Assembly (NCBI GenBank): GCA_033764955.1
Contig: JANRIL010000026.1
Coordinates: forward strand, 1 to 22,930
DNA: 22,930 nt
Direction: 5' to 3'
From: Cyanobacteriota bacterium
GTDB taxonomy: Bacteria > Cyanobacteriota > Cyanobacteriia > Thermostichales > Thermostichaceae
The notes under the pieces were generated by a model. The model saw nothing but the letters and a program-made list of their open reading frames with translations, was not told the DNA's origin and did not search any database. This document shows, in pieces, positions 1 to 22,930 of this stretch; position 1 is the first letter of the stretch, and the number at the start of each line of letters is the position of its first letter. Both the position numbers and the translations under genes were made by a program.

Positions 1-128
1 GGCGACGCCCAACCCCACTTGGAAACACCATAGCAACAGTTGGTCGGCTAGTCCAAATTGTGCGGAGTACGCCGACCCTGGCTATCATCCCGACACCGAC
101 CCTATCGGTTACGGTGCGGGGCTTCCCG
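1..128 (-). mobile_element. Non-autonomous IS200/IS605-family (TnpB-type) miniature element, left-end part, truncated by the window edge
   Basis: Minus strand reads GAAGCCCCGCACCG-TAACCGATAGGGT-CGGTGTCGGG-ATGATAG, an imperfect hairpin resembling cyanobacterial IS605 left ends. It shares TGTTTCCAAG and AGTGGGG(T/C)TGGGCGTC with the element at 3442-3855. A second hairpin GGTCGGC/GCCGACC lies at 42-77. Confidence 0.6.
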
Positions 129-146
129 CCGAGTAAGCTAACCCTG

Positions 147-14571: not shown

Positions 14572-17500
14572 CTAGCAGGGCTGGGAGGGATCCGGTGAGA
14601 GGGGCAAGGAAATGCAAAACCGACTGCCCTGTCCTTCGCTCTCCGCCCAGATCCAGCCTCCGTGATTGAGAATAATGCTGCGGCAGATGGCTAGGCCTAA
14701 GCCTGTGCCTCCTTTTTGGCGAGAGTCAGAAGCATCCACCTGTTGAAACCGTTCAAAAATCAGATCCAGCTTGTCGGAGGGGATCCCTCGTCCCTGATCG
14801 GTGACGGTGAGGCGGCATTCCTGTCCCTGCACGTGGGCGGAAAGGGTGACGGTGGTATGGGGGGGGGAAAATTTGATGGCGTTGCTCAACAGATTGGTCA
14901 AAACCTGGATGAGTTGATCAGGATCCCCCCAGCATTGGGCGGAACAGGTGTGGAGGATCAGGCTGATCTGATGTTTATCGGCCATACTTTGCATGACATC
15001 GCGGGCGTTGGTTAGCAGATCCGCCACAGCGCAGAGTTGCTTGCTGAGGGTAACTTGGCCGGATCCCAGCCGCTCTAGGTCGAGAATATCGTTGATCAGC
15101 CGTACCAGCCGAGCTGTATTTTGTTCGGCAATTTCTAAAAGGCGTTGTCCTTTGGAGGTGAGGGATCCCAGCTTACCTGTCACCAACACGGAGAGGGATC
15201 CGTGGATGGAGGTGAGGGGGGTTCGCAGTTCGTGGCTGACCATCGAGACAAATTCCCCTTTCATTTTTTCTAGGGCTTGCTGTTCGGTGATATCACGGGC
15301 AATCCAGGAAATACCGATCAGATCCCCAGTTTGGTTACGCAGGGCAGAAACCGTCAGAAAGACATCCACCAGTCGGCCATCTTTGCGCTGATGGCGGGTA
15401 TGACGGAGATCTTGGCGAGCCTCTCTATTTTCTCGATTTTTGAGTGGGTGGGTCCAGGTCACCTCTGCCCCACGTCCCACCAAATCGATGAGGGCTTGTC
15501 CGATAGCTTCAGCGGCGCTATAGCCATAGGTACGTTCGGCTCCCGCATTCCAACTCAAGATCACTCCCTTGAGGTCGGTACTGATAATGGCATCAATGGA
15601 GGACTCCACAATAGCGGCCAGTTGCGCCAGTTGTTGTTCGGCCTGTTTACGCTCCGTGATGTCCATGACCACGCCGATCACTTTGATGGCTTGTCCCTCT
15701 CCATTGCTTAAGACCTGCCCCTGCCGCGATACCCACCGTTCTTGACCCGTCGCACTCCGGATGCGGTGTTCGTAGGAGAAGGATTGATCGCTGGTGAGGG
15801 TTTCCAAAAACTCTTCCCACTCCTCTTGGTCGGCGGGATGCAGGAGGGAAGTCAGTGAAGATCGCTGGGGATAGCCCAGGGAGTCCAGAAATTCGGCGGA
15901 AAAGGTTTCAACACCGCTTTGCCAATCTCGCTCCCAGGATCCCATGCCAGCGGCTTGCAGAGTGAGTTGCAACTGAGCTTGGCTGTTGTGGAGGGCGGCT
16001 TCGGTTTGTTTGAGGGAAGTGACATCGGTATAGCTGTCCAAGATGCCGACAATTTTTTGATCCGCGTCGTGGAGAGGAATTTTTTCCCCAATCATCCAGA
16101 GGATGCCACCATTGACACAGGGGATTGGCACCGGTTCTTGATCCGAGAGGATTTGGTTTTGGGTTAGAACCTGCTGATCGCTGGCTTGAATTCTGGCTAG
16201 AAAATCCCTTGGCCAACCCAGGTCTTCATCCCGTTTGCCGATAATCTCGGAGGGGGATCCCAGGCCGACAATCGCTGCCGCCAGAGGATTACAGCCTAAA
16301 TAGGTGAGGGTGTGATCCTTCCAAAACACCGCTTGCGGAACGGTATCGAGAATTAACTGCAACATGGCTTGAGAAGTGCGTAGCTGCTGCTCGATTTGCT
16401 GCCGTTCTTCCACCTCCTGTTGCAGTTGCACCATTTTTAATTGATAAATTTCAGTTTCTTTGCGACTGATTTCAATCTGGTAATCGATCTCAACCGTTTT
16501 CAGTTGCAGGCGCATCCGTTCTCTGCTGACTTGGCTGTGCAGCGTATGAAAGTGCTGAAAGTGAGCTAGGGCTTTTTCAAAGGATCCCTGTTGCTGATAA
16601 AAGGTTGCCAACTGTTGATGGCAAAGGGATTCTTCCCGTTTGATCTCTAGTTTTTGAGCTAGGGGCAGGGCTTGCTGCCAACACAAAGCCGCTTGTTGAG
16701 GGGAGGCTGACTGCACCTGAGCTAGGGATATCCAGGCTTGCATTTCAACCATCGGATTCCCTTCGGTTTTGGCCAGTTGAATGGCCTGTTCTAGATAGTG
16801 AATGCCCAGCGTGGGCTGACGCAGTGAGGCATAGATTCGCCCCAAGTTCCGCAAAATCCAGGGTTCCTCCCGTCGATATCCAATTTGGCGGTGCTGATCG
16901 AGGCTTTTTTGGGCATGGTCGAGGGCTGTCTGATAGTGACCCATTTGCCAGTAGGTGTCTGAGAGGTTGGCTAAACTGTCGCCAATGCCGCGCCGATAAG
17001 CCTGCTCCTCAAACAATCGCAAGCTGCGATGAAAATACTCCAAGGCTTGGGGCCAGTTTTCCAGTTGCTGGTGAATTAATCCTTCGATATTGAGGGCGAT
17101 GGCTTCCCCCAGGGGATCCCGACGGGTTTGGCTAAGGCGGTGGGAGCGCTGAATCAGGTCGAGGGCTTCGCTGTAGTGTCCCAGCTCCATTTGGCCTAAA
17201 CCCAGCAGATAATAGGCTTTCTGTTGTCCGGCCTGATCTCCCACGGCCTCATAGTGAGCCAATGCCTTTAGGATGTGAGGGATCCCCTTTTGATAGTGCC
17301 CCAGTCGCAGATGGCAGTGGCCTTGGTTGAGGGAGCTGTCGGCACTGATGGTGAGGGATCCCGGTGGGGCTGCTGCCCATTGCTGAGCGGTTTCCGCCAG
17401 GGTCAAGGCTTGCTGGGGTTGATAGTAGGCTAATTCCCAAGCTAGGGCATTCATCGCCTCGGTCTGAGCCTGTTCCCCAACGGCTGTCTCAACCTGATGG

Positions 17501-17598
17501 TGGAGATCGGCGATCAGGGGGGGAATCGGATCCGAACCGGACATAGCCATGTTGAAGGGGAAGGCGGAGGCAAGCGGAGAGCCAGGGATCCTGACCAA
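14572..17598 (-). CDS. Soluble sensor histidine kinase: TPR array - 3 PAS/PAC - HisKA - HATPase
   Basis: TPR repeats over about aa 45-360; PAS/PAC motifs (VFWKD..YLGCN, GMGSWE, SWNAGAERTYGY, DITE); H-box SHELRTPL; N-box NLLSNAIKF; DQGRG and GGTGLGL. No obvious TM segment; start codon uncertain. Confidence 0.93.
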   Translation of the reverse strand: MVRIPGSPLASAFPFNMAMSGSDPIPPLIADLHHQVETAVGEQAQTEAMNALAWELAYYQPQQALTLAETAQQWAAAPPGSLTISADSSLNQGHCHLRLGHYQKGIPHILKALAHYEAVGDQAGQQKAYYLLGLGQMELGHYSEALDLIQRSHRLSQTRRDPLGEAIALNIEGLIHQQLENWPQALEYFHRSLRLFEEQAYRRGIGDSLANLSDTYWQMGHYQTALDHAQKSLDQHRQIGYRREEPWILRNLGRIYASLRQPTLGIHYLEQAIQLAKTEGNPMVEMQAWISLAQVQSASPQQAALCWQQALPLAQKLEIKREESLCHQQLATFYQQQGSFEKALAHFQHFHTLHSQVSRERMRLQLKTVEIDYQIEISRKETEIYQLKMVQLQQEVEERQQIEQQLRTSQAMLQLILDTVPQAVFWKDHTLTYLGCNPLAAAIVGLGSPSEIIGKRDEDLGWPRDFLARIQASDQQVLTQNQILSDQEPVPIPCVNGGILWMIGEKIPLHDADQKIVGILDSYTDVTSLKQTEAALHNSQAQLQLTLQAAGMGSWERDWQSGVETFSAEFLDSLGYPQRSSLTSLLHPADQEEWEEFLETLTSDQSFSYEHRIRSATGQERWVSRQGQVLSNGEGQAIKVIGVVMDITERKQAEQQLAQLAAIVESSIDAIISTDLKGVILSWNAGAERTYGYSAAEAIGQALIDLVGRGAEVTWTHPLKNRENREARQDLRHTRHQRKDGRLVDVFLTVSALRNQTGDLIGISWIARDITEQQALEKMKGEFVSMVSHELRTPLTSIHGSLSVLVTGKLGSLTSKGQRLLEIAEQNTARLVRLINDILDLERLGSGQVTLSKQLCAVADLLTNARDVMQSMADKHQISLILHTCSAQCWGDPDQLIQVLTNLLSNAIKFSPPHTTVTLSAHVQGQECRLTVTDQGRGIPSDKLDLIFERFQQVDASDSRQKGGTGLGLAICRSIILNHGGWIWAESEGQGSRFCISLPLSPDPSQPC

Positions 17599-17622
17599 TG
17601 GTGAAGATAAGCCATCTCTGCC

Positions 17623-19446
17623 TCAACGGTAACGTTTTTTCTGACGGCGTTCCAGCCGATTCAAAATGCGAGCGATCAACTCTGGCCCCACCACAGGTTT
17701 GTTGACATAATCATCGCCACCCACGTTAAACACGTGAATGATGCTGGCGGGGTCGCGGTGGGCAGTCAGAAACAAAATCGGTAATGCCTCAAAGGTGGTG
17801 GACTGTCGTACTACCTGGCACAATTCAATCCCCGATACCTCCGGCATCTCAACATCCAAAATCAAGAGGTCAGGTTGTGTTTGTTGCAGGGTTTCCCAAA
17901 ACAGCAGGGGTTGGTTGAGGGTAAGGATCTCAAACCCCCAGGGCTGGAGCAGTTCCACCAACATCTCCAAAAAGCTGGCATCATCATCCACCAGCAGCAA
18001 CTTGGCGGGGGCGCTATCCCGTGAGCGATACAGGTCTCGCACTGCCGCCAGCATGTCGTGGCTAGGAGTGGTGGCGGCCACAACCCCATGCCCCCCCCAC
18101 TTGGCAATCTGTCGCCGCTCCGCCAGGGTATCTTGGGTGGGGATGACGATAATGGGCAGAGGAAAGGGATCCCACAAGCTCTGCAACTGTTGGAGAGGGC
18201 TAGGGTCGCCCTGCCAAGCCCGCAAATCCACTAGCAACACATCCGGTTGTAGGGTTTGGATCCACGCTGGCAGATCGTCCTCTTGCTTGAGTAAGGGGGT
18301 TAAGTGGATGGCTTGGACGGGGGCAGCCAGCCGCAGGGATTGCTCAAGGTCGGTGGACAATCCCCAGGTCAAGAGGCGGATCCAGAGGGGGGATCCTATC
18401 GTGGCTGGAGTGGAGGGTAGTGGGGAATTATGGCGTGGCTCTTGGGCTAACTCGGCTTGCAGTTGTTGGCAGAGGCTTTGCAGTTCTGCGAGGGGACGCG
18501 GTGGAGATTGGATCCCAACTTCCAACCGGCGAGCCAATGCGGATCCCTGAGTAAACCCCAATGTGCCCAGGGATCCGGCTAATTTGTGAGCCGCCTGTTG
18601 CGCCTGCTGCCGTTCTGCTTCCGGCAGATCTGCGATGGCTAAACGATGCAGAGCCTGCTCAATAATCTCCAGTCGTTCTAGCATCTTGGGCTTAAAGCGA
18701 GGCCAAGCCGCGGTCAGAGCAACAATAGCTGGGTTGGGATCGGAGGGAGGAGCGACGGGAGCAACCTGTTCAAGAGCGGGGTTGAGACGATACCCCAGCC
18801 CATACACGGACTCGATCAGATCGGGGGGAGCACCCCCAGCCTTCAGATTTTGGCGCAACCCTTTGATGTGAGCCTTGATCGTGTCTTCGTTGGGAGAATC
18901 CTCTAGAGTCCAGAGTTGGTCGAGGATGGCACCACGGCTAAACACCCGCCGCCCGTTGCGAAGCAGCAGTTCTAATAAGCTATATTCCTTGGGGCGCAGG
19001 GTAATCGGCTTGCCCCCATAGGACACCTGGCAGGTGGTGGGATCCAGGCGCAGCTCTCCCCAACTTAAGACAAGAGATGGGGGAACCTGGCCCCGCCGAG
19101 ACAGCGCCCGCACTCGTGCCGCCAACTCTCCTAGGCTGACGGGCTTGACCAAATAGTCATCGGCTCCGGCATCCAACCCAACAATTTTGTCGCTGTCGGA
19201 AGCATGGGCGGTCAACAATAAAATCGGGGTATGGGATCCCTGGCTACGCAACTTTTTACAGAGACTAATGCCATCTAACTTCGGCAGGTTGACATCAATA
19301 ATGATGAGGTCCGGTTCCATTGACTGAGCCAAATCCAACCCCAGCAGACCATCTCTGGCTAGCTCTAGGATATGGCGCTGTTGTTTGAGGCTATCAATCA
19401 ACAGTTCCGCCAGCGGCTCATCGTCTTCAACCAGTAGGATTTTCAC
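17623..19446 (-). CDS. Multidomain response regulator REC - OmpR wHTH - HPt - pseudo-REC - REC (RcaC-like architecture)
   Basis: KILLVEDD/IIDVNLP/KP; wHTH with IESVYGLGYRL; HPt AHKLAGSLG; C-terminal LLVDDD/ILDVEMP/NKP. Confidence 0.93.
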   Translation of the reverse strand: MKILLVEDDEPLAELLIDSLKQQRHILELARDGLLGLDLAQSMEPDLIIIDVNLPKLDGISLCKKLRSQGSHTPILLLTAHASDSDKIVGLDAGADDYLVKPVSLGELAARVRALSRRGQVPPSLVLSWGELRLDPTTCQVSYGGKPITLRPKEYSLLELLLRNGRRVFSRGAILDQLWTLEDSPNEDTIKAHIKGLRQNLKAGGAPPDLIESVYGLGYRLNPALEQVAPVAPPSDPNPAIVALTAAWPRFKPKMLERLEIIEQALHRLAIADLPEAERQQAQQAAHKLAGSLGTLGFTQGSALARRLEVGIQSPPRPLAELQSLCQQLQAELAQEPRHNSPLPSTPATIGSPLWIRLLTWGLSTDLEQSLRLAAPVQAIHLTPLLKQEDDLPAWIQTLQPDVLLVDLRAWQGDPSPLQQLQSLWDPFPLPIIVIPTQDTLAERRQIAKWGGHGVVAATTPSHDMLAAVRDLYRSRDSAPAKLLLVDDDASFLEMLVELLQPWGFEILTLNQPLLFWETLQQTQPDLLILDVEMPEVSGIELCQVVRQSTTFEALPILFLTAHRDPASIIHVFNVGGDDYVNKPVVGPELIARILNRLERRQKKRYR

Positions 19447-19815
19447 AGCACTCTGGGGGACAAGGTTGCGGGCTAGCCTCCTGCAAGGCTCTCCATTTGA
19501 GAGAGTTGAGCCGTCAAACTCTATGGGAAAGCTGGGGATCCCTCTCTTTCTCTTCCATTTTAGTTAGGAGTGCCAGAAATACCCCATCTCCCAGTCTTTT
19601 TATATTCTCAACTTTCTATTCTCAGTAGAATCATGCTTCCGATAAGCCGATATTCATCGAGGTAGCCTAGCGAAAGTTACTATCGACCGTAAACGGCGTG
19701 ACGGGTGGAGTCGTTTTTGTCTGTTTTGTGGCTAACATCCTGCTCTCGCGGATGCTCTGGGCACACGGCTCTTGGTTATGGTTTGATCAATTGCAGGCCG
19801 CTACGTTTTGCTGTT

Positions 19816-20610
19816 ATGGGACTGATTTTGGAATCTCCAGGGCCAATTTTATGGCAATGGGGTTGGCTACAACTGCGTTGGTATGGAGTCTTGATTGGGG
19901 TAGCCATTCTCTTGGGTTTATGGCTAGCTCAAGCGGCAGCACGGCGGCGGGGTTGGGATCCCGCTCTCATGTCAGAATTGCTGGGCTGGTTGATGATCGG
20001 GGCGATTCCGGCAGCCAGACTCTACTACGTGCTGTTTGAGTGGCCGATCTATCGGCAGCAGCCTTGGTGGAAGGTGCTAGCCATTTGGCAAGGAGGCATC
20101 GCCATTCATGGGGCTTTGTTGGGGGGGATGCTAGCCATTGGCTGGTTTGCCCGCTACCGTCAGCTTAACTTTTGGCAACTGGCCGACACGATTATCCCCT
20201 CTGTCATCTTGGGACAAGCCATCGGGCGCTGGGGAAATTTCTTTAATAACGAAGCCTATGGAGGAGCGATTGCGGCGACTAGCTGGATTCAACTGCGGCT
20301 ACCTAATGGATCGTTGGTTCATCCCACTTTTTTCTATGAATCCCTGTGGAATCTGGGAGTGTTTGTTCTGCTGCTGAGGTTAAGTAGACGGCCAGTCCCC
20401 CTGCCAGCGGGGAGTTTGTTGGCGGTTTATCTGATTGCTTATAGTCTGGGGCGGTTTTGGATTGAAGGGCTACGCACCGACAGCCTGATGCTAGGACCTT
20501 GGCGGGTAGCGCAGGGGGTTAGCCTCCTCCTGATCGGGCTGGGATCCCTCTTGCTCTGGCAGCGCCGCCGAGCCGCCCTAACGTCAGCCAACAACTCAAG
20601 CTCAACATAA
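19816..20610 (+). CDS. lgt: Prolipoprotein diacylglyceryl transferase
   Basis: LRWYG, ARLYYV, WQGGIAIHG, QAIGRWGNFFN.E, HPTFFYES and RFWIEGLRTD. Start more likely ATG 19816 than 19705. Confidence 0.96.
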   Translation: MGLILESPGPILWQWGWLQLRWYGVLIGVAILLGLWLAQAAARRRGWDPALMSELLGWLMIGAIPAARLYYVLFEWPIYRQQPWWKVLAIWQGGIAIHGALLGGMLAIGWFARYRQLNFWQLADTIIPSVILGQAIGRWGNFFNNEAYGGAIAATSWIQLRLPNGSLVHPTFFYESLWNLGVFVLLLRLSRRPVPLPAGSLLAVYLIAYSLGRFWIEGLRTDSLMLGPWRVAQGVSLLLIGLGSLLLWQRRRAALTSANNSSST

Positions 20611-20690
20611 CGACCAAGTTGAGCGGCTGCAGATAGCCTCTGACTCCTACAGATAACCTCTCGGCGGTCGGCTCCAACGACTTGTTAGCT
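20605..20690 (-). mobile_element. Integron attC-like recombination site 1 (86 bp)
   Basis: Minus strand: R'' AGCTAAC, AAGTCG, L'' TTGGAGCCGAC ... L' GCCGCTCAA, CTTGGTC, R' GTTATGT. L'' has the extra unpaired base (TTGGAGC vs GCTCAA). Confidence 0.85.
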
Positions 20691-20726
20691 CGTCGCACTC
20701 ACCAGAGAGCTATCTGAACAATGCGT

Positions 20727-22472
20727 CTAACCTAAAAGTTGACTCAATTTGTTAAAGAATTGATGGACATCTTCGTGAATTTCATCTGCAATCATACTAG
20801 CTGCAACTATTTCGCGAGTTAACTCTAATGCAGAAGTTGATTGTATCGGAAGCTCGCAAGATTTAAGGCGCTGAAAAAGGGAGTCTGGATTCTCAAATAA
20901 GAGCCTTTTACCATTTACAAGTTGAAAGATGTTTGCCTTGACATTCCTCCAAGATTGACCTAGTGGGAGAGTAAGATTTTCGCCAGCAAAGAAATTTTCA
21001 ATCATTTCTCTAATTGGAGATGAAAAAATATCATTGTCACTAACACCAATTTTTTGTAGAGCTACCCTTATCCAGGCATCTGGCACAAGCAAATAATTCT
21101 CAATATTTTTACGTCGCCATTCATACAGAACCGGATTATTATCCTCTGGATGGAAAGTTTCGTCCTCATCATAATCAAATAACACGAGTCGCTTTGTAGA
21201 AGGAATGATTTGTTTTACCCCATCAAAGTGGCGCTTACTATCATCCTTCATTTTTTCTTTTGAGCCACCCCGCATAACGCGAAAACAAGCCTGATTTAGG
21301 GGTTCTTGCATATTCAAAGCAGTAGCCCAACCTCTTAAGAGACGCTCATCAGTTTCTCCCTCAACATATAAAAGTATAGGTACAGAAAGCTCTGAAAGTT
21401 GAGTGATCTCCAAATTAGAAACATCCGCCATTGCAGTCAAAATAGCTGGGGTTGATTCTACCCGTTTAGGGACTTTATCAAGTAGCGAAATGATTTGGCG
21501 AACATCAACTCCTTGAATGAATTCCTCAGCATGTGTCGCGATCAGAAACTGAGTATTTCTCTGGATCGCTTTCTGATTTTTAAAGTAGTCTAAAATTTCT
21601 CGTTGTAAATTAACGTGAAGATGTGCATCAGGTTCATCAAGCAAGATAGTAGTAGGCTTATACCCATAAAAAAATGCCAAGAGAGTTAATGTTTGATGAA
21701 AACCACTCCCTCCGGAAATGATGTCGTAAGACTTCTCTCCTTGTCTATATTCACAAATTATCTGTGTATCGACTCCTCTCTCATATTGGGGATCTCTTAA
21801 ATCAACACTGAACCACTGCTTGATAACTCGTTGAATCTCAGACCAATCTTCTCGGTTTTCTTCCCAAACCCGGAGCAGAAGATTTCTTAGCACACTGCCT
21901 GGTTGGGCTTTACCAATCTGCTTACGTAAAGGTCCATCATCTCGCCACTCTTCATTAGGCTCCAAACCAGAGAAAGGTGGAACATAAGCAATAACAGGTA
22001 AAAGCGAGACTGACTGATCCGGCTTTCCTTCCAGATCTCGAAAATGCTCCCATCCCTCCGAAGGAATAGCGTAGATTGTTTGAGGGGAACTGTAACGTAA
22101 TTTGACCCCAAATGAGCATTGCTTAGGTTCAGGAGTATCAGTTATCCAAGTAACGTCGATTTCTACTAAGATAAACTCTTGCTTTTTAGACCCATTAACT
22201 TTGGGATATCGGCGGTCAGTTTTTTCTTTCCAAAGAAGGTTGAATTCTGGGACGGGGAGCGCCGTGAAGTTAGGAAGAACGACTTGCTTTCCGGTGTTAC
22301 CCTGACGCTTAACTCGGCGGAATTCATCAACACAAAACTGCCAGATGGCTAAAGCTTGCAAGATAGTGCTTTTACCACTATTATTACGCCCCACTAGAAG
22401 ATCAAATTGAGCAAACTCGTAGGTTTGCTCCTCAATGCTCTTAAAGTTTCTTAAGGTTAGTGTAGTTATCAC
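20727..22472 (-). CDS. ABC-type ATPase + TOPRIM (OLD-family-like ATP-dependent nuclease), cassette-borne
   Basis: NFKS, Walker A GRNNSGKST, signature SGGSGF, Walker B LLDEPDAHLH, ATH, TOPRIM YVEGETD and FDYD, IENY. AT-rich, no GGGATCCC. Confidence 0.85.
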   Translation of the reverse strand: MITTLTLRNFKSIEEQTYEFAQFDLLVGRNNSGKSTILQALAIWQFCVDEFRRVKRQGNTGKQVVLPNFTALPVPEFNLLWKEKTDRRYPKVNGSKKQEFILVEIDVTWITDTPEPKQCSFGVKLRYSSPQTIYAIPSEGWEHFRDLEGKPDQSVSLLPVIAYVPPFSGLEPNEEWRDDGPLRKQIGKAQPGSVLRNLLLRVWEENREDWSEIQRVIKQWFSVDLRDPQYERGVDTQIICEYRQGEKSYDIISGGSGFHQTLTLLAFFYGYKPTTILLDEPDAHLHVNLQREILDYFKNQKAIQRNTQFLIATHAEEFIQGVDVRQIISLLDKVPKRVESTPAILTAMADVSNLEITQLSELSVPILLYVEGETDERLLRGWATALNMQEPLNQACFRVMRGGSKEKMKDDSKRHFDGVKQIIPSTKRLVLFDYDEDETFHPEDNNPVLYEWRRKNIENYLLVPDAWIRVALQKIGVSDNDIFSSPIREMIENFFAGENLTLPLGQSWRNVKANIFQLVNGKRLLFENPDSLFQRLKSCELPIQSTSALELTREIVAASMIADEIHEDVHQFFNKLSQLLG

Positions 22473-22661
22473 AGGGCTATATTGACAGACAGCTTATATA
22501 TGAAAATCTTATCTTATGTTTTGCCATTTAAGCTCTGCCACATTCGATATGTGTTATCGCAAGATTTTAGTTAAGTACGCTTGCACTAGAAATATATCAG
22601 GTAAATAAATATTTTGGTTTGGAACAGCAATTTTAAGATCTGCTTCAACCAGTAGCGTGAG

Positions 22662-22747
22662 AGCTAACGGTTGAATTGAGCGGACGCAAATGCTTTTTGA
22701 ATCAACGATAGCGTTTACCGATGTTCCGCTCCAATGAAGTGTTAGCT
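22662..22747 (-). mobile_element. Integron attC-like recombination site 2 (86 bp)
   Basis: Minus strand: R'' AGCTAAC, ACTTCA, L'' TTGGAGCGGA ... L' TCCGCTCAA, TTCAACC, R' GTTAGCT. Confidence 0.88.
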
Positions 22748-22930
22748 GGCTGAGTGCAACTGCTGGAGGAATTCTTGATAAATCGGCTCATGTGACGCTG
22801 AAAAGTTCTCCATGCCTGTCTTTGTTAAGTTTCCGCTCTTTCCAGTATGCGGATTCTTTACATAGCTAGAAATCACTTTTGGGCGTTCTGGATTCTCATG
22901 CCAGGTAATGTTGAAAGCTGCGTATTTTGG
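22742..22930 (-). CDS. 3' end of an unknown cassette ORF (window-truncated)
   Basis: Open frame PKYAAFNITWHENPERPKVISSYVKNPHTGKSGNLTKTGMENFSASHEPIYQEFLQQLHSAS*, with its TAA inside the R'' box AGCTAAC. Confidence 0.65.
   Translation of the reverse strand, partial: PKYAAFNITWHENPERPKVISSYVKNPHTGKSGNLTKTGMENFSASHEPIYQEFLQQLHSAS

Follow-up and report, generated by a model that had tools for sequence, protein, structure and literature searches.

Integrons have been recorded for Cyanobacteria in genome surveys (PMC4889954, PMC2426708, PMC8618304), and so have clusters of attC sites lacking an integron integrase (CALINs). In the IntegronFinder work, a CALIN is recognized by the absence of intI within 4 kb, and about half of the replicons that contain CALINs are reported to carry complete integrons as well (PMC4889954). 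The commonest CALIN size given in a preprint is two cassettes; the same source counts 3400 single attC sites lacking an integron integrase (SALINs) in 2469 genomes, which implies ~1.4 per SALIN-bearing genome (10.1101/2022.09.11.507474). Here, we describe a further case of this known kind: two 86-bp attC sites and the gene cassette between them at the right-hand end of a 22,930-bp stretch of DNA from a cyanobacterium of the family Thermostichaceae. This stretch ("the window") is the entire contig C31 of a 3.8-Mb assembly that consists of 48 contigs and is 89% complete. We consider it very probable that the window contains the integrase-distal end of an integron-type cassette array, read on the − strand.

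Like CALINs and SALINs, the locus consists of co-oriented attC sites, two in number, behind co-oriented open reading frames (ORFs), and the 20.6 kb to their left contain no intI. Its two-cassette size is the one given as commonest for CALINs (10.1101/2022.09.11.507474), and its genome also holds complete integrons, as about half of the CALIN replicons described in PMC4889954 do. The 4 kb without intI that this source uses in its definition are present on the left side only, 183 bp being known to the right of the second site. attC sites without an adjoining intact intI occur at 45 places in the genome, which is far above the ~1.4 per genome derived for SALINs (10.1101/2022.09.11.507474), although the lineage-specific covariance model used here (R1, see below) is probably more sensitive than the tool behind the SALIN totals. 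With sedentary chromosomal integrons, as presented in PMC4889954, PMC2426708, and PMC8618304, the genome shares a TIGR02249 integrase, an attI junction GTTAG(G/C)C located ~240 bp before intI, a divergent array, and homogeneous, lineage-specific attC sites. Unlike in those systems, the arrays next to intI are short (~5–8 sites), most sites are scattered, and there are two intact platforms plus fragments instead of one large array. A preliminary description of the stretch, made from its sequence, had remarked that such systems are little characterized experimentally in cyanobacteria; indeed, no work dedicated to cyanobacterial integrons was among the matches listed in our literature search.

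Geometry of the Two attC Sites

According to PMC5027507, attC sites are 57–141 bp long and contain inverse core boxes, in which bottom-strand 5'-RYYYAAC-3' (R') pairs with 5'-GTTRRRY-3' (R''). The same source describes AAC/GTT outer boxes, an unpaired spacer of 5–6 nt, extrahelical bases at position 16 (usually G) and at position 23/24 (a conserved T) on the arm facing AAC, and a 6-bp stem between these bases. The preliminary description had pointed to two 86-bp palindromes with attC-type box organization and a bulged base. The coordinates and lengths of both (Table 1) read back from the sequence, the length falls inside the published range, and the published geometry is present in each of them. 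For both sites, the − strand of the window serves as the top strand, and the + strand as the bottom strand, which is the one that recombines. On the + strand, site 1 reads ACATAAC ... GTTAGCT and site 2 reads AGCTAAC ... GTTAGCT, so that the R boxes pair at 5/7 positions in site 1 and at 7/7 in site 2. In site 1, the outer box is partly chromosomal, a hybrid that reads GTTATGT on the − strand; since outer-box pairing inside arrays averages 4.8/7, the 5/7 value is normal. Both sites have the AAC and GTT triplets, and each box deviates from the R/Y pattern at one of its four degenerate positions.

The central spacer of both sites is unpaired, with 6 nt on the arm of the AAC triplet and 5 nt on the opposite one. 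On the bottom strand, two bases, C16 and T23, are extrahelical; they lie on the arm opposite AAC and are separated by 6 bp, and the T is invariant in 30/30 aligned sites. The L stem of site 1 contains one G-G mismatch. The bottom strand of site 2 takes the attC hairpin (−17.2 kcal/mol, z −4.09; the top strand reaches −14.3). These sites thus share with the canonical attC of mobile integrons and the Vibrio cholerae repeats (VCRs), as described in PMC5027507, the AAC/GTT R boxes, the 5–6-nt spacer, the extrahelical bases 16 and 23 with 6 bp between them, the conserved T, and a variable terminal structure. They differ in their outer boxes, which are AGCT/AGAC/ATGC rather than strict RYYY/RRRY. 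The 86-bp palindromes are genuine integron attC sites.

A Family of Related Sites in the Genome

A motif search seeded with the two window sites, together with nhmmer in three rounds, collected ~80 related sites genome-wide. Thirty family members aligned with MAFFT were used to build a covariance model, R1. The full R-box and L-stem structure was written manually, since the register of the outer stem varies and RNAalifold recovered the inner L stem alone from this alignment. Under the supplied structure, 82.7% of the cells in the 30 aligned sites pair, compared with 27–40% when the partners are slid by 1–3 columns, and changes on both sides are seen in 17/22 pairs. The observed values were reached by 0/500 shuffles.

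The preliminary description had proposed a search of the genome with an attC covariance model. R1, a model of the site's own family, produced 78 matches corresponding to 77 sites, one site alone being matched on both strands. The sites occupy 47 places, 32 of them singles and 15 clusters; each cluster is strand-uniform, and two clusters adjoin an intact intI while 13 do not. Matches to R1 were also found in related genomes (19 of 21, the source genome included), with none in two genomes that are 94% and 99% complete. One complete related genome contained 36 scattered sites.

Cassette Boundaries and the Circle Test

Cleavage is predicted at A22667|C22668 and A20610|C20611, which delimits a complete cassette (cassette 1) composed of a 195-nt AT-rich leader, an ORF, a 36-nt spacer, and attC site 1. 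On the − strand, this cassette begins with TTAGCT at 22667, and its own site begins with AGCTAAC at 20690. In the preliminary description, the match between the two was taken as a mark of a former circle. The own inner box AGCTAAC is indeed complementary to GTTAGCT at the cassette start at 7/7 positions, compared with 5/7 for the adjacent outer box.

The same comparison, of the inner box of a cassette with the half-box at its own start, was made for 21 adjacent site pairs with intact AAC/GTT boxes. Complete (7/7) complementarity was found in 15/21 cases with the cassette's own start, in 1/21 with the adjacent outer box, and in 2/21 in a reverse-direction control. When just the four variable positions were counted, the means were 3.48 with the own start, 1.81 with the adjacent outer box, and 1.95 in the reverse control. 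This difference shows that the cassettes are permuted circles joined by recombination at G|TT, and it confirms their polarity as well.

The nearest DNA relative of cassette 1 is a metagenome locus (L121) that is 84% identical over 1,965 nt, with homology starting from exactly GTTAGCT. Its 3' flank is not a recognizable attC, and it is the only locus with the same 5' boundary. In one sequencing run (X1), a 624-nt contig diverges from the window at 22669.

At the other end of the cassette, the stop codon TAA of lgt (20608–20610) lies within the outer box of site 1, and its last base is the A of the predicted crossover point A20610|C20611. The far, integrase-distal junction of the array is thus directly after the lgt stop codon.

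The preliminary description had further characterized the ORFs of the array as co-oriented, AT-rich, and free of the host palindrome. Both lie on the − strand. The G+C content is 40.1% between the two sites (20691–22661) and 52.7% in 1–20604, a drop that we counted as foreign composition. The abundant host palindrome, GGGATCCC, has 4915 copies in the 3.8-Mb genome (~1.3 per kb). Within 1–20604 of the window, there are 25 copies (between 357 and 20541), and there are 0 beyond 20541, where ~2.8 would be expected in the last 2.3 kb; taken by itself, this absence is weak evidence. The palindrome looks like a HIP1-like variant of the host lineage. HIP1 itself (highly iterated palindrome 1, GCGATCGC) was rejected as the host palindrome, having 109 copies in the genome and 0 in the window.

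Table 1. Features of the window, with coordinates on the + strand
Feature	Position and size	Strand	Properties and basis
attC site 1	20605–20690, 86 bp	−	terminal array site; R1 68.3 bits, E 1.3e-14; alignment, fold, pair list
attC site 2	22662–22747, 86 bp	−	belongs to cassette 2; R1 75.1 bits, E 1.7e-16; fold, pair list
Complete cassette 1	20611–22667, 2,057 bp	−	between predicted cleavage points; boxes read from sequence
Cassette 1 leader	22473–22661	−	AT-rich, 33.9% G+C
Cassette 1 ORF	20727–22472, 581 aa, GTG start	−	ABC/SMC-type ATPase head and putative C-terminal TOPRIM/DUF4435-like domain
Cassette 2, 3' part	22668–22930	−	last 62 codons of a ~218-aa protein and attC site 2; cut by contig end
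5'-open ORF of cassette 2	22742–22930	−	TAA stop within AGCTAAC of site 2
lgt (prolipoprotein diacylglyceryl transferase)	19705–20610	+	Pfam LGT 1e-71; ORF list
tRNA gene	2546–2628	−	Rfam RF00005, 57.6 bits

Cassette 2 and the Right End of the Contig

As the preliminary description had stated, the ORF next to cassette 1 ends inside the R'' box of site 2, and the array runs off the right edge: the contig ends within cassette 2, 183 bp past site 2, in a repeat that it has in common with another contig, C32. The last 265 bp of the window are 99.2% identical to C32:16444–16708, at the C32 end, which is their sole match in the assembly. The AAC triplet of site 2 is where this identity begins, and the sequences preceding it differ; on C32, the cassette next to the cassette 2 copy holds a different ORF of 272 aa. 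Since the identity starts at AAC and the neighboring cassettes are different, one and the same cassette is present in two arrays.

At graph joins, the ends of contigs have 141 nt in common (C4/C9, for example), and C31 and C32 thus enter one common repeat node that is missing from the assembly. For this reason, the right side of C31 cannot be followed. No partner for its right end was found in the assembly, and a 41-nt exact pattern from the window end had 0 matches in metagenome_contigs. The search beyond 22930 that the preliminary description had recommended yielded no continuation of C31 in either the assembly or metagenome_contigs.

The protein of cassette 2, of which only residues 158–217 are encoded in the assembly, has 41 longer homologues of 135–223 aa that are 66–88% identical; some sources name the family "peptidase M15". 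A gene for this M15-like protein is present in 3/30 genomes of the order, the source genome included. An R1 search of two foreign M15-like loci gave no match.

Integrases of the Host Genome and Polarity of the Array

A search with TIGR02249 (curated cut-off, 265 bits) gave no match anywhere on C31. Elsewhere in the genome, there are two intact intI genes above this cut-off, C9:19–960 (−) with 463 bits and C38:63588–64529 (+) with 451 bits, each with an open frame; no match in the 14 control genomes exceeds the cut-off. The preliminary statement that no integrase is in view thus holds for the window and does not extend to the genome.

Arrays of attC sites are located directly upstream of both intact intI genes, on the intI strand. 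C9:1–8500 and C38:53300–64529 represent two complete integron platforms with ~5–8 attC sites each. The DNA likeness of the two is ~87%. Their intI–attI regions are alike up to TAGTTAG(G/C)C, ~240 bp before intI, where the likeness is lost, as would be expected of the junction between attI and the first cassette. The palindrome TATACGGAAA/TTTCCGTATA precedes TAGTTAG(G/C)C in the shared intI–attI region.

Fragments or pseudogenes of intI were observed at C36:180–860 (two TAG stops), C30:655–831, C38:182627–182934 (TAA and TAG stops), and C11:37538–37811. A candidate fragment at C4:4–123 was rejected, as it is merely the 141-nt graph overlap with the intI of C9. A remnant resembling the 5' end of the C9 intI and its attI region lies ~1 kb from the attC pair C11:33779–36613. 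Some of the clusters are thus decayed integrons.

A scan with the C9 integrase identified 575 relatives among 599 candidate stretches, the best being Pseudanabaena metagenome-assembled genomes and Tumidithrix, with 78–80% identity; the host, a Pseudanabaena-like cyanobacterium, thus probably belongs to the same group. R1 was searched in 40 of the 80 intI loci from other genomes that were kept, and matches were found in 22/40. All 43 distinct sites in these loci are upstream of intI on the intI strand, with 0 downstream. Most of the 18 loci without a match have short upstream sequences; in eight it is at least 4.5 kb, and three of these eight are labelled non-cyanobacterial. From this orientation relative to intI, it follows that the + strand of the window is the attC bottom strand, that the cassettes are read on the − strand, and that any attI and intI of this array would be to the right of 22930.

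The published integron mechanism suggests how the window sites would be used. An integron integrase (two intact ones are encoded in the genome) would bind the folded bottom strand (the window + strand) of each attC, and would cut between A and C of 5'-AAC-3', at 22667|22668 and 20610|20611. Recombination of site 1 with site 2 would then set free a circle of 2,057 bp with the nuclease-like gene and a reconstituted attC, while the reverse reaction would insert such circles. The resident integrases presumably act on the window sites in this manner.

The Cargo of Cassette 1

Defense genes in integron cassettes are a current research topic (10.1101/2024.07.02.601719, PMC12614218). Like the defense-carrying cassettes presented in these two sources, cassette 1 is a single-gene cassette whose product is an OLD/PARIS/PtuA-like ATPase with a putative TOPRIM-like tail. 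It differs in being long for its kind (~2 kb), in its cyanobacterial host, and in that the function is read from sequence.

The head of the 581-aa protein matches Pfam AAA_15 (6.6e-19), AAA_21 (1.8e-17), and SMC_N, and its profile matches in PDB are Rad50, SMC, and retron PtuA-type ATPases. Matches in PADLOC were NsnB (1e-24), AriAB (1.6e-21), AriA, PtuA, Old, and GajA, the AriAB match spanning residues 276–480 only. The C-terminal domain had no Pfam match at E ≤ 0.01, and PDB sequence searches gave no confirmation for it; the language-model neighbors of residues 335–581 included DUF4435 (0.94) and OLD-like TOPRIM (0.91) clusters. A Y-V-E-G-E-x-D-E motif at residues 369–376 is invariant. More than 100 cyanobacterial homologues are 66–96% identical to the protein, and some of them are named "ATP-dependent nuclease". 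The protein thus resembles the defense ATPases OLD, PARIS (AriA/AriAB), PtuA, and GajA by its sequence; it is likely a defense nuclease, and may serve in phage defense. The gene was found in 3/401 sampled genomes of the phylum, including its own.

Discussion

Several observations weigh against the window being part of an integron-type array. R1 was trained on sites of the same genome. At position 16, at least 90% of the 30 aligned sites have C, in contrast to the canonical attC and VCRs described in PMC5027507, where this base is usually G. For site 1, the canonical attC fold has −4.5 kcal/mol compared with −9.6 for the lowest-energy structure (z −0.3), and this best structure is not an attC hairpin; the folding of the bottom strands, whose failure the preliminary description had listed among the outcomes that would refute it, was therefore borne out for site 2 and not for site 1, and of the outcomes listed there this is the only one seen, in part. 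Because of this fold, excision of cassette 1 may be poor. A promoter scan of 20400–22930 returned no more sites than were present in shuffles, with no cassette promoter found and no consensus promoter on the − strand in the leader of cassette 1. No excision joint was reported from the four sequencing runs examined, all of them as contigs, with a sampled-word share of at most 0.36 in any run.

The distribution of the cargo gene is another point on the same side. There is no R1 site within 1.5 kb of the ATPase gene in two other cyanobacterial genomes, and none within 3 kb in 80 metagenome loci with its relatives; the gene thus travels mostly outside recognizable cassettes. In many clusters of ATPase homologues, the longest contig is just 1.9–2.4 kb, close to the 2,057 bp of cassette 1. 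Assemblies that break at flanking repeats would fit this, although the 80 metagenome loci show no R1-type attC.

If the palindromes were repeats of another sort, such as repetitive extragenic palindromic (REP) or miniature inverted-repeat transposable element (MITE)-like elements, or transcription terminators behind ORFs, then their position at ORF 3' ends, the many single and dispersed copies, and a lowest-energy fold of site 1 that is not attC-like would be accounted for. Such an origin is very improbable, however. Neither site is followed by a T-run or is returned by a terminator scan, and co-oriented clustering directly upstream of intI is seen in the source genome as well as in 22 loci from other genomes. 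Moreover, the 15/21 result of the circle test and the break of duplicated-cassette identity at an AAC triplet argue for recombination sites.

Within the reading of the window as the distal end of a cassette array, there are two ways in which the array could have come to lie behind lgt. It may be a true CALIN, formed when an integrase from another locus inserted a one- or two-cassette circle at an attG-type site behind the lgt stop codon, with no intI or attI to the right; we put the chances of this only just short of even. The junction exactly after the lgt TAA, with its hybrid outer box, is consistent with such an event, as is the fact that the majority of attC places are small and distant from intI, 32 being singles and 13 being clusters that do not adjoin an intact intI. 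An exact complement of the first-cassette inner box is present within 3 kb upstream in 18/37 testable clusters, compared with 7/37 downstream and ~18% for 7-mers of other sites. Insertion at attG sites and SALINs have been reported (preprint 10.1101/2022.09.11.507474), and no R1 site occurs within 1.5 kb of lgt in 11 relatives. However, these relatives belong to other genera (55–68% Lgt identity), so that the empty site itself was never seen, and the right boundary lies outside the assembly, C31 and C32 entering one missing repeat node.

It is also quite possible, with somewhat less than an even chance, that the window holds the far end of an integron, either complete or decayed, and that the attI and intI of this integron lie past the end of the contig, the latter intact or as a pseudogene. 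Here, the polarity of the array, by which attI and intI should follow on the right, after 22930, is as expected, and further intI fragments exist in the genome (C36:180–860, C30:655–831, C38:182627–182934), as does the C11:33779–36613 cluster ~1 kb from a C9-like intI/attI remnant. On the other hand, the arrays of both intact integrons end within their own long contigs, hence neither of them is the missing part, and no contig end can be linked to C31. The lgt junction fits insertion of a cassette at a non-attC genomic GTT site, and equally fits the end of an older array. In the genome as a whole, the upstream and downstream counts would fit insertion of whole cassettes at non-attC sites. Both routes occur in this genome, since the C11 cluster adjoins an intI/attI remnant while other clusters fit non-attC insertion.

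A wider proposal is that of natural, genome-wide cassette dissemination, with the two intact integrases scattering cassettes with C-16 attC sites into dozens of chromosomal sites, one of them behind the lgt stop codon. We regard it as tentative and, at present, unlikely.

Other Features of the Window

The left end of the window (1–141) has 97–100% identical copies at many contig ends and also internally (C28:49657–49797, C22:30593–30733, C18:16799–16939, C23:12975–13115); it is a dispersed repeat that breaks the assembly. An Rfam scan of the whole window gave a tRNA as the sole match, with no match at either 86-bp site. The stretch 14572–19446 (−), directly upstream of lgt, encodes a large TPR-PAS-PAS histidine kinase of 1008 aa, followed by a hybrid response regulator of 607 aa whose domains are receiver, Trans_reg_C, and Hpt. 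On C38, ~4 kb past intI, there is a further lgt paralogue with 49% identity (C38:68580–69437, −). This proximity raised the question of whether lgt and integrons are linked; as no lgt was found in the intI loci of other genomes (L033–L112), the idea was dropped, and the proximity is probably a coincidence.

Implications

General knowledge of integrons is unchanged by this finding. What the locus provides is a cleanly delimited cyanobacterial cassette, for which both cleavage points, the polarity, and a duplicated neighbor cassette are defined, and it allows a test of whether a defense-like nuclease travels as a cassette. The host genome shows two apparently intact integron platforms together with an unusually scattered set of attC sites. 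Along with its relatives, it is a reasonable place to study how cassettes leave an array and settle elsewhere in the chromosome. If active, the dissemination system considered above would be the counterpart in nature of the attG insertion that has so far been demonstrated experimentally in E. coli.

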